Shown here piece by piece: positions 21,001 through 27,000 of a DNA stretch of 45,040 nt. Source of the stretch: Thermodesulfobacteriota bacterium (GTDB lineage: Bacteria > Desulfobacterota > Desulfobacteria > Desulfobacterales > C00003060); contig JAXHVD010000021.1 in NCBI GenBank assembly GCA_034189385.1, positions 1-45,040 on the forward strand, given 5' to 3'. Position numbers: made by a program. Position 1 is the first letter of the stretch. Every line of letters starts with the position of its first letter.

Positions 21001-24000
21001 AAATCGTCTCGTCCTTTTGGGCCTCGTCATTATTGTGATCATGATCCTTGCTGCTCTCCTTGCCCCCCTTCTTACGCCTTATGACCCGTTCTTGCATCAC
21101 CTGGATGAGGGCCTTAGTCGTCCCAGTTGGTCCCATCCCCTAGGCCAGGACAGATTCGGTCGCGACATTCTTGCCCGCATGCTCTATGGGGCCCGCATTT
21201 CCCTTTGGGTCGGGGTCTCTACGGCCCTGGTTTCTCTTATGATCGGGATGATGATTGGAGCCACTGCCGGGTTTTTGGGCGGGGCCTTTGATGAGATCCT
21301 GACCCGGGTCATCGATATCCTCTTGGCCTTTCCCGGCATTCTCCTGGCCTTGGTCCTGATGGCGCTCTTGGGTCCCAGCTTAAACAACGTCATATTGGCG
21401 CTCTGTCTTGTGGGGTGGGTGGGATATGCTCGCCTTGCCCGTGCCCAAGTGCTGTCCATCCGGGAGCGAACGTACATCACTGCGGCCCGCTCCATTGGTG
21501 CCACGCAAAAAAGGATTATTTGCTCTCACATTTTGCCCAACATATTGCCCCCCCTGTTGGTGGAGGCCACATTTGGCATGGGTGGGGCCATTGTCGGGGA
21601 GGCGGGCCTTTCTTTTTTGGGCTTTGGGGTCCAGCCGCCTACGCCGAGTTGGGGGGCCATGCTAAACGAGGGTCGGCAGTTCCTCCTGATTGCACCCCAC
21701 TTGACGACCTTTCCCGGGCTTGCGATCATGCTAGTGGTCCTTGGCTTCAACTTCTTTGGAGATGGGCTGCGTGATATGTTAGATCCTCGATTGTAACCAA
21801 GAGTGCGGGGCCAAACCGAATCAGGCCCGCTTTAGCTGTGGAAGGGGACAGGCCATGCATCGGGCAGACACTCTTACGAATGAGCAACTGGCGGGCCAGA
21901 GCCTGATGGTTGGATTCGAAGGGCCGCGATTGGACGATGACCTACGATCTATGATAGGCCAAATGCACGTGGGCGGCCTTGTCCTGTTTAAACGAAACGT
22001 ATCTGATCCCCATGGGTTGGCAGAGCTTTGTGGGGACGTGCAGGCCCTTTCACTGAGAACAGGTGATCCTCCCCTCATGATTTCTGTTGATCAGGAAGGT
22101 GGCTCGGTGGCCCGGCTGGGGCCCCCCTTCACGGTTTTCCCAGGAAACCGGGTTATAGGGAAAGCCAGATCTCAAAATGCCGCCAGAGCCTTTGGGACCA
22201 CCACGGCACGGGAACTGAAGCACGTGGGGATTACTATGAATCTTGCACCCGTACTGGATGTCATTGAGCAGGAGGGCGATTGCCCTGTCATGGCAGATAG
22301 GGTCTTTGGGGATGATCCGAAACTGGCAGCAGATATGGGCAGGGTCGTGATTGAGGCACTGCAGCAAGGCGGGGTCGCCGCCACGGCCAAGCATTTTCCA
22401 GGGATGGGGCGGGCAGTGGCCGATCCTCACAACGACGTTGCCCACATTGATACAGAAAGGCACGTTCTGGAATCGAGGGATCTGGTTCCATTTCAGTCTG
22501 CCATAGAAAGCGGTGTGGAAGTGGTGATGCTATCCCATATGGTATACGATGCCCTTGATCCCCTGTGGCCTGCTAGTCTGTCGTCAGTCATCGCCAAAGA
22601 CCTGTTGAGAGAAACCATGGGCTTTAAAGGGGTCACCATCACCGATGACCTGGACATGGGGGCTATTGATAGGCACTTTGACGTGGGGACCGTTGTGAGA
22701 CGGATCTGTGATGCGGACATTGACATTGCCTTGATATGCCGTGATCGGGCCAAGATGGAGACTGCCTACGAGGCCCTGTTGGCGGCCATGGGGGAGTCGC
22801 CTGAGAGGCGGAGAAGGAGACTCCTGTCTGTTCAACGTCTTCTAGACCTAAAAGGGCGTTACGCCCCTCAAGAGGTGGTTTGTTGACAGGGATGCCATAT
22901 TTTTCTATAGTGCCCAAGGTTGATCGGCAGCCAGCGGGATATTGCCGTCCTGGTCCACCAGAAGCAGTGCGAAACAGGGTCCGTTCATAACGCAGGGCTT
23001 GTGTTAGAATGTTTCAGGAGAAGTCCATGTACCGCGAGAACTACATCAATTCGCTCCGGACTGAAGTGGTGGATATGGTGGCCGGTTACTTGACCCCTGT
23101 GGCCCTTCGCTACGGTTACAGCGACGTGCCTTTGGAGGCCAACATCAAGTGGCGGCCCCAGGTATTGGTGCTGGGCAATTACTCATCTGGCAAGTCTACC
23201 CTCATCAACGAGTTCCTTGGAGGAAACATCCAGGCCACGGGTCAGGCACCCACTGACGACTCCTTTACGGTGATTACCCACGATGACTCAGACACTGTTG
23301 GCAATATCGTGCGCGTCATTGAGGAACGGGACGGGAAGTTTTTGCTCAACGACCCTGAATTCCCTTACGAAAGCTTGAAAAAACACGGACAGCGTTTTGC
23401 CTCCCATTTCCGCCTAAAAAGGGTTAACTCGCCCTTTCTGGAAAACCTAGCTATCATCGACACACCTGGTATGCTCGACAGCATAACGGAACGGGATCGT
23501 GGTTACAACTATCAGGATATTATTGGCGACCTGGCACAGATCGCCGATCTTGTCCTAGTGGTCTTTGATGCCCACAAGGCGGGCACTGTCCGGGAAGCCT
23601 ACATCAGCATCAGGGAGACCTTGCCGAGCCGGACATTTGAGGACCGGGTGATCTTTGTATTGAACCGCATCGATGAGTGCGCGTCGCTGGCAGACCTCCT
23701 TCGGGTGTATGGGACCCTTTGCTGGAACCTGTCACAAATCACTGGACGCAAAGACATTCCCATGATTCGCTTGACCTATTCTCCCCATGTGACAGGTGGT
23801 TTTTTTGATGCATCGGACCAGGATTCAGGTTACCTTGGCCATCTCGAGAACCAGCGTGAGGAACTGAAGAAGGCCATCTTGCAGGCCCCTTGTCACCACC
23901 TTGATCACCTTGCCACATTCGTTGAAACCCATGGAGAGCGTCTGTCTCATTTGCTTGAAGCCCTCATCGGCTATCGCAGGCGGGCTCGCGCATTCCGCGC

Positions 24001-27000
24001 AAAATTCGTGCTGGCCGGTCTCTTGTTCAGTGTGCTCTGTGGGGGCGCAGCCACCTTTGCCATGATGACCACGACCGCGTTTGCTAGTATGGGGCCCCGT
24101 GCACTGTTGGGTGGAGGAGGCGTGGTGGCGCTAGTGGTGCTGTTTTTTTGGCTGACACTGCTCATGAGATACTTCACGTCGTCATTCCACCGCAATTGTA
24201 TGAAGGACCTTGATGAACTGACGCCCATTGAGAATCAGACGCGGCGGGACAGCTGGCAGGCAGTTCGACACCTGGCACAAAGTTACCTGAAAAAGAGCGC
24301 CGGACGTTTTTCCTTCAGGGCGGTAAAGCAGGAATATGCAGCCGTGCGCCGGGTTTTTGACAAGGGGTCCCGAGAGATCCGTGAAGCGCTCAATGAGCTT
24401 TCCACCATCAGTGACGGTGAGGGAAGGGCTGATGATGGTTCCATTTCCGCCCCTTCGCCCTTGCGGGGAGAAGAAATGGGAAAAGCAGTCCGGCTGAAGC
24501 AAAGAAACTCATGATGGGCTTTCTGGCCCATCAAAGGATTAACTGACTTACGCCCGAACACCCTTCATTGCGGTGAACCACATCCCCCTCTGTCAGATCT
24601 TTGCCCTGCTCGGGGCCTGCCTCTGGCTCCCAATGTTCTTTTCGTCGTACTGAAGACTTCCATATCCCCATTGATTGATAAGAAACGGCTTTGTGGGACA
24701 GGGCACTGTCTAAAAGAAGGGAGATTGCCGTTTTGCGGCATTGATCCATGCTTCAACCCGGCGCTTCACCAGAGGCGTTTTTCGAAGTCCGACGGCCTTG
24801 TTGATGGTGAGGAGCTCTGCAAAAAGTTCATTGGGGCGTTGATGACGCAGGTCTTCTGGCCAGCAGATGCCGGCCATCTCCAGTAGTCGCGCATTTTCAG
24901 AGCCCATGTTGACCAGGGATACAAGGGTAAGACGACGGTGGATGGGGTCGCGAAAGGGGACGCTGATTACCGCTGATGCCTTGCCCCAGTCTGCCAGGAT
25001 TTCTGCAGGGTATCGCCATCCCTTCTTGGTGAGTGCCTCTGCTTCAGAGAGGCTGACATCTCCAAGGATCTCCTGGAGTGATTCGGAGCGACTGTCGATG
25101 GTACGTGTATTCATTTGGTCGTAGGACCATTCGCTCAGAAAGAGACCCAAAAGCACAAGAAGTGCGTAACCTGTCTTGTGGGTGAATCGTGAGGCCCTTT
25201 TTTCCCCTGTTGCCTCTGGCAGCCAATGGCGGCCACCGCGGAGCAGATAGACGGCGTTCGTCATGACGAAACATTCCACACAAAAGGGCGGAAAGCCCAG
25301 AAACCCCAGGTACGGCATTTCGAGCAGTTTGCCCTTTGCAAAAAAAGGCACCGTGTACACCCATTTTTCCAGGGACCAGAAATTGCAGAGCTCCCAGTAG
25401 CCGCCGCATAAGATTCCGGCAATGAGCAGACGGACCAGGGTGGTCCATTGTCCGGTTTCCACATCTCTCAGTAGAGAAGGCCCACCCCATTTCGCACAGA
25501 TTGGTTCCAGCAAGAAGATGAGGCCCCCCCACACCAAAGGAAAAAACCAGTCAGGATAGAGGAGAGGCAGTACCAGCATGGCACATCCGACCAACGGGCA
25601 TGCCTTGCGGCCCCACCCCTTCATGGTGGCCTTGGTTTTCACCTGCCCGGGGATCTTCAACCGACACAGGAGGCGGTATACCAAGAACATGCCCGGCAGC
25701 ACCGTGGCGAAGTCAAGATAGGCTTCCACATGAGCCCATGGCCCTTCCGACGGGGCACCGGCAAAATACCAATCCTTTAAGTGGAGATTCCAGATCTCAA
25801 AGTAAAACCAGAAGACGGCAGACCAGAACAGGAGGGTTACAAATTCCCTTGGCCTTGCGAGTATGAGTCCTTCCTTCCAACGCCACCAGAGGAACCCGTC
25901 CATGAAGACGATGAGTCCGTACCAGGCAAATGGATAGGTGTGGGCATAAAAGGGAAAGAGGTAGTTGGCAGTGCCCCAAAAGGTTACCAACAGGGTCAAG
26001 AGGCCTGTGGCCATCATCATTTTGCTGAGAGAGTGGCGGCTCATGGAACATCAGCGTAAGGTTGTTGTCTTTTTAACTATACGCTCGCTAACCCCGCAGC
26101 CTGCGACGCACTGGCATCAGGCAGAGCCTACAGGGGCTGCGGTAGCTCTCCTGTGGAGAATGCGCTTGCTTATTCGGTTCAAGAAGAGATGGTCACCGAT
26201 TGGTGCAGCCCCTTAAGTACCTGGATGATCTCCTTTCCGAAGGCCTTTCTCTGCCATACCCTCATCTTGTCTATGGCCTTCAGGTCATCCACATGCTGTG
26301 GGTCATGCTCTGCGAAGGCATGGAGGAGCTGATTGTTGCACATCAGGCCAGGGTCCAGTTTGAGGTCTTTGGCTTTCAGGCCACGCCAGGTCTTTAACAG
26401 CTTCAAGCGGGCTTCCTTTTTGCGGTTTTGGGGTGGCCTGGGTGACTTTGGAAAAGAAGGCAGGCAGGAGCCCGGCAATGCAAGGGCCCGTTGAATGGCT
26501 CCCAGCACCCCATCTGCATAACGTTTCACGAAGTCGGACGGCAAATCGCCCACCTTTTTCAAGGCTGCACGGTGAACCGGTTTTGCTTTGACCAGTTTTT
26601 GTATCACACTATTTGGAAAGATCCTGAAGGGGGGTTTGTCCTTTTTCATGGCTATACTTTCGCGAAACCGGAGGATCTCTTCGAGAACGGCCAGATCCCT
26701 CGCTGCCAGTTTGCCCGCCCCTTTAAACCGTCTAAAGAGGGGAGGAGCAGCTCTCTTGGTTCCTTCAGGCACATTGCACTTTAGGCTGTTTGCCCTCTTA
26801 GCCTCACGGTGGCCAGGGTTGCCATCCACAACAGAGTCTCGCGAGAGGATCTCGCATTCCTCCTCAACCCAAGCCAACCTTCCTTTAGATCTTAGCGCCT
26901 TTTCCAGTTCGACATAGAGCCTGATAAGATAAGCACTATCGTGGGCAGCATAGAGCATCATATCATGGTTGAGAGGACGCTTTGACCAGTTGGCTCTCTG

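Follow-up and report, generated by a model that had tools for sequence, protein, structure and literature searches.

This locus raised the question of whether an open reading frame (23009–24514, plus strand) in a 45,040-nucleotide window of the genome of a sulfate-reducer-type Thermodesulfobacteriota bacterium codes for a prokaryotic relative of the eukaryotic EHD proteins, as the initial annotation had proposed, and how such a protein might act on membranes. The start codon at 23027 yields a protein of 495 aa, here called P0001, whose first methionine is invariant across 35 orthologues. The following features were assigned to the gene and its flanks:

22883..22911, plus strand: sigma-70-like promoter match TTGACA-17-TATAGT (11/12 positions, consensus match only)
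23016..23020, plus strand: ribosome-binding site AGGAG (GGAG at like spacing in most relatives shown)
23027..24514, plus strand: CDS of the MfnL/EHD-type dynamin-superfamily protein P0001, 495 aa (frame, Pfam, PDB sequence search, alignment)
23030..23110, plus strand: N-terminal helix, residues 2–28 (model)
23153..23782, plus strand: G domain, residues 43–252 (Pfam, PDB alignment, model)
23174..23197, plus strand: P-loop GNYSSGKS, residues 50–57 (alignment)
23246..23260, plus strand: switch I APTDD, residues 74–78 (alignment to EHD2)
23459..23470, plus strand: G3 motif DTPG, residues 145–148 (alignment)
23663..23677, plus strand: G4 motif NRID and Glu217, facing NKAD and Met223 of EHD2 (alignment)
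23699..23725, plus strand: LRVYGTLCW, residues 225–233 (alignment)
23885..24004, plus strand: Pro288 and long stalk helix, residues 287–326 (model, alignment)
24005..24160, plus strand: predicted transmembrane hairpin (hydropathy, profile alignment)
24161..24406, plus strand: return helices, residues 379–460, with which the helical domain is complete (model, profile and structure alignment)
24416..24511, plus strand: C-terminal tail, residues 464–495, low-confidence and variable, where EHD has its EH domain (model, orthologue alignment)
24512..24533, no strand assigned: 8-pair hairpin directly after the P0001 stop, scoring as a minus-strand terminator (convergent DUF4332 gene)

The promoter match lies 115 nt ahead of the P0001 start, overlaps the stop of a nagZ-like gene and is the best of three matches in the region, where 3.2 are expected by chance; 5 of 61 upstream regions scored at least 10/12, versus 1.45 in shuffles. 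The match suggests that the gene may have its own transcript. Terminator-like sites numbered 8 versus 6.4 expected, and the call at 24512..24533 is weak. One RNA run (7% of words) yielded seven short contigs, none across the P0001 gene, and is evidence neither way.

A search of PDB sequences put six EHD2/EHD4 sequences (E 5e-27 to 2e-23) at the top, the next of the 32 listed being 5owv at E 0.008, and Foldseek ranked five EHD structures (E 3.9e-15 to 1.3e-11) ahead of BDLP (4.9e-10) for the P0001 model; both results of the initial annotation were thus reproduced. Structure alignment of the model gave VIA Z values of 26.5 for EHD4, 18.8 for mitofusin-1 and 15.2 for BDLP, and residues 5–458 superposed on EHD4 19–403 with 360 aligned residues at an rmsd of 4.2. 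EHD2 and EHD4 are the nearest solved relatives of P0001 over the whole G and helical domain, and the kinship of this prokaryotic protein with eukaryotic EHD is genuine. Pfam recognised Dynamin_N (E 1.5e-17) in P0001 and no EH, EHD_N or DUF5600 domain, while EHD proteins used as a control for the EH search matched PF12763 in 9/9 cases. By homology to EHD, the modelled N-terminal helix would pack with the C-terminal helices into one composite helical domain, and Pro288 matches the EHD proline that acts as the hinge.

The earlier description of a hydrophobic two-helix segment without an EH domain was borne out: the hydrophobic segments cover residues 327–345 and 360–378, flanked by basic stretches and joined by a neutral loop. 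Of 121 close relatives, 111 have two such segments (mean net charges +5.2 / −0.2 / +3.6). In the profile-profile alignment of MfnL-type proteins with EHD (424 over 382 columns), the hairpin faces the EHD tip loop. As judged from these alignments, the predicted hairpin exactly replaces the membrane-binding tip of EHD, which is new from this analysis.

The P-loop, switch I and LRVYG motif all align with EHD as previously claimed, except that EHD2 Thr94 of switch I faces Asp77. P-loop residues S53, K56 and S57 correspond to EHD2 S68, K71 and T72, and Trp233 to EHD Trp238 of dimer interface-1, a Trp being present in all 76 ingroup rows. The change of the switch I Thr to Asp across the two-TM proteins (59/59) is also new; Thr is found in 17/17 EHD and 8/8 outgroup rows. 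The neighbouring Thr76 does not constantly stand in for the missing Thr, its place being taken by Val, Ile or Met in 6/16 bacterial MfnL-type rows. The constancy of the Asp suggests that it helps to bind Mg or water. In the Desulfobacterales-centred clade, G4 carries Arg in 23/23 rows and the following Glu in 21/23.

By sequence comparison, P0001 is closer to MfnL, bacterial and protist, than to EHD. Its G domain is 40.7% identical to bacterial MfnL-type proteins, 39.9% to eukaryotic MfnL, 32.2% to EHD and 20.8% to the outgroup, and the proposal that it is closer to EHD than to bacterial dynamin-like proteins held among solved structures only. The MfnL work of Morel et al. reportedly appeared in Curr Biol in 2025. 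Among named members, JKF63_04376 matched P0001 directly (E 1.5e-37), RTZ59088.1 was 34% identical over residues 8–373 (200 bits) and TbMfnL (Q57XN3) 31% over residues 43–347 (149 bits), where the pairwise BLAST alignment stops short of the C-terminal helices. Profile-profile comparison of the P0001 clade scored 731 over 441 columns against bacterial MfnL-type proteins, versus 351 over 266 against EHD, and the T. brucei orthologue had the same six EHD structures as its top matches. Passages of the preprint by Morel et al. (bioRxiv 10.1101/2023.06.28.546890) describe the family (TbMfnL, Tb927.7.2410, and bacterial homologues), define homologues by similarity over the whole length, and report that TbMfnL is anchored in the inner membrane facing the matrix and that its branching of mitochondria depends on the P-loop Lys and the TMs. 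From its sequence, P0001 is to be classed as a member of this already reported MfnL/two-TM EHD-related family, in a distinct clade.

Two-TM bacterial homologues of EHD/sarcalumenin had been noted in 2020 by Schaffer, Iyer, Burroughs and Aravind, passages of whose article (PMC7016017) describe the closest bacterial EHD homologues as carrying a TM helix pair after the GTPase domain and name 'a proteobacterial lineage' as donor. Because the existence of the family is already published in this article and the preprint, the P0001 gene is no discovery, and the initial proposal of a candidate prokaryotic EHD relative stands as to kinship but not as to novelty. The term 'Desulfo' had no match in one part of the PMC7016017 supplement, the accession list lying outside that part, and in the main text of the preprint by Morel et al. 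both 'Desulfo' and 'EHD' are absent. A literature search for MfnL with EHD gave unrelated papers only; searches on a bacterial EHD link, most subscription papers being outside their scope, gave nothing further, and PMC10280142 had no occurrence of 'EHD'. The two literatures, on bacterial two-TM EHD relatives and on mitochondrial MfnL, seem to deal with one and the same superfamily but have no contact with each other. A former remark that LeoBC had been noted as EHD-like found no echo in the main text of PMC4159319 (no occurrence of EHD or Eps15) and may come from elsewhere.

The trees, from all of which sarcalumenin was missing, contained three groups: EHD, the Desulfobacterales-centred P0001 clade and published-type MfnL. 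A quick tree placed the P0001 clade as sister of published-type MfnL, and a careful 42-row G-domain tree set the P0001 clade apart at 99/95 and joined EHD with it at 96/91. The latter grouping speaks for the P0001 clade being an ATPase and the specific sister of EHD/sarcalumenin, with EHD derived from a Desulfobacterota-like donor, as do a P-loop Tyr (17/17 EHD, 23/23 clade rows) and a His before the signature Lys (14/17 and 21/23), neither of them present in MfnL-type proteins. However, the outgroup branch of this tree measures about 9 changes per site, a tree uniting all two-TM proteins has a log-likelihood better by 0.08 (p-AU 0.52), EHD with MfnL-type reaches p-AU 0.35 (G domain), and when G and helical columns were used and the third family served as outgroup, 948 of 1000 bootstraps united EHD with MfnL-type versus 19 for EHD with the P0001 clade. 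Moreover, the switch I Asp unites the two-TM groups against EHD and outgroup, and there is no Met after G4 to support the ATPase part. Non-reversible rooting (NQ.pfam, 30/40 ingroup rows) left the 15 best roots within 1.5 log-likelihood units. Because the trees leave the root open, a special link between the P0001 clade and EHD is decided neither way, and we regard the sister relationship with ATPase function as unlikely. Much less probable still is the uptake of a eukaryotic EHD or MfnL gene by bacteria: the open root and a p-AU of 0.15 for EHD with eukaryotic MfnL (G domain) would allow it, but eukaryotic MfnL nests among bacterial-type rows in two trees, its union with EHD occurs in 0/1000 bootstrap trees (G and helical columns), there are three deep bacterial groups, and passages of PMC7016017 and of bioRxiv 10.1101/2023.06.28.546890 favour or allow a bacterial origin.

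Our main reading, with a probability of roughly 0.7, is that P0001 is a solitary bacterial dynamin-superfamily NTPase of the MfnL/two-TM EHD-related group, in a distinct Desulfobacterales-centred clade, which works as follows. It would reside permanently in the inner membrane via its predicted hairpin, with both ends probably cytoplasmic, dimerise stably by way of the Trp233 helix and, once nucleotide is bound, polymerise through the G interface (S53, R158, H183, K184). A pivot of the stalk near Pro288 would let the hairpins, arranged in rows, curve the membrane or draw it into tubes; hydrolysis would release the polymer, and no partner dynamin would be needed. Interface-1, the G interface and the tip-insertion mechanism are known for EHD (PMC9741607), and we infer that P0001 likely faces the cytoplasm from the inner membrane, where it would polymerise and bend the membrane. 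A homodimer prediction (residues 1–462, two copies) scored 0.26 against a mark of 0.42 and was counted neither way. As candidate nucleotide, GTP is somewhat favoured, ATP comes second and use of both is improbable. The former ATPase label found no support, since the Met said to select ATP in EHD, where it is held to exclude guanine (PMC5084822), is Glu217 in P0001; because this Met occurs in only 6/17 EHD rows, the residue after G4 is a weak predictor of the nucleotide.

Slow or no turnover is possible, because the T94A exchange at the site of Asp77 leaves EHD2 with absent or lowered ATPase activity, and that variant still tubulates membranes. P0001 might accordingly be a nucleotide-binding static scaffold, to which the Asp for Thr in 59/59 proteins and the variability of Thr76 would fit, but S53, K56, S57, D145, R158 and D216 do not vary among 47 diverse members, the Asp is itself fixed, and TbMfnL K141A is inactive, though a need for binding alone would fit that too; we consider such a scaffold improbable. 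Somewhat more plausible, although still doubtful, is that the same biochemistry serves to mend membranes under stress or phage attack, a role put forward for other bacterial dynamins, and not their routine shaping. The range of the gene is patchy, with matches in 205/401 genomes of the order at E<=1e-20 (189 at E<=1e-80) and about 7/291 elsewhere in the phylum, and NfeD and SPFH genes lie upstream in about 8/81 loci. Against a repair role, the 80 best named loci hold orthologues of 58–76% identity, the SPFH linkage occurs in a single lineage, PADLOC LeoA/LeoBC gave weak G-domain matches only (E 3e-9, 1e-5), the two flanking genes included no defence genes, and there was no match among plasmids or viral contigs, the latter in a single-protein query that finds close relatives only.

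Of the matching genomes in the order, 199/205 have a single match, which agrees with the earlier statement of a mostly single-copy gene in about half of it. A second dynamin-like gene was absent from the flanks in 74/81 loci, many with short flanks, and 7/81 have a dynamin of another type on the opposite strand. The 81 neighbourhoods offered no functional clue; a conserved operon partner was rejected, the largest neighbour cluster (18/81 loci) being mixed response regulators. A search among longer proteins gave one match of 1300 aa with amylase-type Pfam matches and no Dynamin_N, which is weak evidence on fusions.

It is unlikely that, among living bacteria, the P0001 clade is the nearest sister of EHD/sarcalumenin and that mitochondrial MfnL was acquired independently from a different branch of the same bacterial family. 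If true, one bacterial inner-membrane dynamin would have entered eukaryotes twice: MfnL would have kept the TM hairpin and Asp switch I, and endosomal EHD, from a deltaproteobacterial-type donor, would have acquired a peripheral tip in place of the hairpin, and an EH domain besides. In a solitary conserved bacterial member, three questions could be approached simply: whether dimer and filament of EHD are older than eukaryotes, at what point the preference for ATP emerged, and in what way a dynamin functions with Asp for the switch I Thr.

With EHD1–4 (2qpt, 4cid, 5mtv, 5mvf, 7sox), P0001 shares the fold of G domain and composite helical domain and keeps Trp238, Arg167, His192-Lys193 and, of the KPF loop, the PF, whereas Thr94 is Asp, Met223 is Glu, the EH domain is absent and a predicted TM hairpin takes the place of the peripheral membrane tip. 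The bacterial homologues in passages of PMC7016017 have the same architecture of EHD-related G domain and TM pair. MfnL shares with P0001 a G domain with G1–G4 followed by two C-proximal TMs (in P0001 predicted by hydropathy), the absence of EH, the motifs P-T-D-D (switch I), CWNL and K-D-x-P, and a profile match to the clade along the whole protein. The P0001 clade differs from published-type MfnL by a P-loop Tyr (MfnL His), a G4 Arg (MfnL Lys), shorter return helices and the lack of the WFAER motif and a targeting presequence. The classical bacterial dynamins BDLP, IniA, DLP1/2, LeoABC, DynA and SynDLP likewise have a G domain, helical bundle and hydrophobic tip, but P0001 is only about 21% identical to BDLP-type outgroup rows (Z 15–17) and falls below the NCBIfam cut-offs for LeoA (18 bits vs 325) and DynA (14 vs 1600), and these dynamins are mostly encoded by tandem genes, whereas the P0001 gene is solitary.

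The gene under study occupies an open frame at 23009–24514 (plus strand), from which the start codon at 23027, preceded by AGGAG, yields the 495-aa product P0001, whose start residue is unchanged across 35 orthologues. Pfam detected Dynamin_N in P0001 and no EH, EHD_N or DUF5600 domain, and the protein scored far below the cut-off of every NCBIfam dynamin model. In the window, the gene is flanked by a nagZ-like glycosidase and two ABC permeases on one side and by a convergent DUF4332 membrane protein on the other.

Features of the window and of related loci (L labels)
22883–22911: near-consensus promoter match, based on the consensus
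3502–9588, plus: 2028-aa protein with 17 PKD domains, adjoining a 703-aa Ig-like protein
10012–15065, minus: LexA, four-helix IVP-type protein, 866-aa DNA polymerase III alpha and DUF72 in a row
16264–19074, minus: 936-aa protein, with weak matches only, to part of a DinG-like helicase and, at the C terminus, to a helix-turn-helix
40609–42909, minus: PLP-dependent (PALP) enzyme fused to cysteinyl-tRNA synthetase
L002:124–2394, minus: another dynamin-like frame (757 aa), unrelated to P0001, same genome, contig C1
L017, L024, L028, L032, L037, L038, L042, L068: NfeD and SPFH genes and 130-aa ORF upstream of the match
L206:670–2223, minus: P0391, member of a third two-TM family

The row at 10012–15065 looks like an SOS mutagenesis cassette, with a polymerase that lacks the C-terminal domains, and the PKD and Ig-like proteins are probably surface proteins. 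Across 80 loci and the window, no general neighbour was found, the neighbour counts being minima as many contigs are short. Partners were limited to single lineages: RecX (12), a Lon-like protease (9), response regulators, and, upstream at about eight loci of Desulfosarcinaceae-like genomes, NfeD and SPFH (band 7) genes with an unannotated 130-aa ORF, which shares one frame with SPFH in L024. A second dynamin-like gene, similar in length to the 757-aa frame, lies on the opposite strand 2–4 kb from the MfnL-type gene at 7 of 81 loci.

The initial annotation had placed P0001 closer to eukaryotic EHD1-4 than to any bacterial dynamin. Its searches were reproduced: six EHD2/EHD4 sequences topped the PDB sequence search (E 5e-27 to 2e-23, the next match at 0.008), and five EHD structures ranked first in Foldseek with an AlphaFold2 model (mean pLDDT 78), of which residues 5–458 superposed on EHD4 19–403 with a Z of 26.5, compared to 18.8 for mitofusin-1 and 15.2 for BDLP. 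A search of 50% representatives returned 1467 proteins at E≤0.001; among the best 150 examined, many matches at 30–40% identity carried two TM segments and some showed N-terminal extensions resembling mitochondrial presequences, which pointed to the MfnL family described in the available text of Morel et al. (bioRxiv 10.1101/2023.06.28.546890), comprising trypanosome TbMfnL and bacterial homologues. Sequences of members that the paper names were retrieved through their accessions (JKF63_04376, TM35_000191450, GBG23909.1, RTZ59088.1 and Q57XN3, which is TbMfnL). With one program, P0001 scored 145.8 bits against JKF63_04376 versus 97.9 against EHD2, and across 200 G-domain columns its identity with bacterial MfnL-type proteins was 40.7% and with eukaryotic MfnL 39.9%, EHD reaching 32.2% and BDLP-type outgroups 20.8%; the claimed precedence of EHD holds only among solved structures. 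Because the T. brucei orthologue finds the same six EHD structures as its top PDB matches, the EHD likeness is a property of the whole MfnL family.

Aligning the bacterial MfnL-type profile with that of EHD gave 382 columns covering the whole helical domain, in which the two TM segments sit exactly opposite the short EHD tip loop, the primary membrane-binding site of EHD according to parts of PMC9741607. The profile of the P0001 clade aligned over 441 columns to MfnL-type, but over only 266 to EHD. Exactly two hydrophobic segments follow residue 290 in 111 of 121 close relatives, and because this hairpin has basic flanks and a neutral loop, both protein ends are predicted to be cytoplasmic.

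For EHD controls, metagenomes were scanned with a motif, giving 120 loci, of which 29 contained a whole G domain; all nine put through Pfam showed Dynamin_N, DUF5600 and EH. Counted along the P0001-EHD2 alignment from the PDB search, P0001 retains EHD2 Ser68, Lys71, Asp153, Arg167, His192, Lys193, Asp222 and Trp238, together with the Pro-Phe pair of the KPF loop. Pro288 corresponds to the proline that serves as the hinge in EHD. Thr94 of EHD2 is replaced by Asp77; this switch I site is Asp in 59/59 two-TM rows and Thr in 17/17 EHD and 8/8 outgroup rows. The T94A variant of EHD2 had no or decreased ATPase activity (PMC3315815, in part). Next to the retained residues, a non-hydrolysing scaffold, for which Asp77 might speak, seems unlikely. 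Met223, said in the accessible part of PMC5084822 to exclude guanine, corresponds to Glu217, and because Met occurs in only 6 of 17 EHD rows, this site does not settle nucleotide choice.

The tree missing from the initial annotation was supplied, and all versions share one unrooted shape of three groups (EHD, P0001 clade, MfnL-type), with the root placed differently from tree to tree. Group labels were assigned here, with bacterial or eukaryotic status inferred except for named accessions and genome loci, and sarcalumenin was absent throughout. In a quick tree of 84 rows, EHD (92) stood next to a group of all two-TM proteins (92), which contained the P0001 clade with the third family (96) and MfnL-type (92). 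For a careful 42-row tree the third family was dropped along with two long outgroups; here the root shifted and EHD joined the P0001 clade (96/91). AU tests rejected no alternative to this grouping among those tried: all two-TM proteins together was 0.08 better (p 0.52), EHD with MfnL-type reached p 0.35 and EHD with eukaryotic MfnL 0.15. A careful 44-row tree over 363 G and helical columns, rooted with the third family, united EHD with MfnL-type in 948 and with the P0001 clade in 19 of 1000 bootstrap trees. A root that makes EHD the sister of all two-TM proteins gains support from the switch I Asp. Set between the 42-row tree and these bootstraps, the reading that the P0001 clade is the specific sister of EHD and an ATPase appears rather doubtful.

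P0001 was described as mostly single-copy in half of the Desulfobacterales, and this was borne out: of 401 genomes in the order, 205 have a match at E≤1e-20, and a count along that list gives 189 at E≤1e-80 and 199 with one match. Loci of the best 80 of 492 relatives are nearly all from Desulfobacterales or deltaproteobacteria, and an even sample of the phylum gave 11/301 matches, with about 7/291 outside the order. A second subclade of the P0001 group within this order (L211–L214; counted in 14 genomes, with E values from 1e-90 to 1e-98) has Ser for the G4 Asn in three of four examined. The third bacterial two-TM family (L206–L210; E 1e-21 to 1e-24 to P0001) has the switch I Asp and interface Trp, lacks the RGY motif, again matches EHD best in PDB (E 1e-6), falls mainly into Pseudomonadota in Atlas clusters and is the sole match within five genomes examined; PMC7016017 may include it under its 'proteobacterial' relatives.

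P0001 is most likely a permanently anchored inner-membrane protein facing the cytoplasm. It would dimerise via the Trp233 helix and, nucleotide-bound, polymerise via the G interface, so that the hairpins might bend or tubulate the membrane. We infer this mechanism from EHD structures (PMC9741607) and the behaviour of TbMfnL, which in the available text of bioRxiv 10.1101/2023.06.28.546890 faces the matrix and supports mitochondrial branching dependent on its P-loop lysine and TMs. A cellular role in stress or phage repair, which is compatible with the same biochemistry, is a less likely reading. An origin of the bacterial proteins from eukaryotes is very unlikely; Schaffer et al. 2020 (PMC7016017, in part) placed the EHD origin in a proteobacterial lineage.

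No MfnL–EHD link was found in the literature searched, mostly outside subscription journals, the main text of Morel et al. containing 'EHD' zero times; the tip-for-hairpin correspondence and switch I Asp were not met in literature on bacterial EHD/MfnL, in a search aimed at neither. The comparison also took in parts of PMC5827413, PMC10280142, PMC4159319 and PMC12699882. The family of P0001 is already in print twice, as MfnL and as bacterial two-TM relatives of EHD: in bacteria, the nearest homologues of EHD and sarcalumenin have a TM helix pair after the GTPase domain, as stated in the accessible portion of Schaffer et al. 2020 (PMC7016017).
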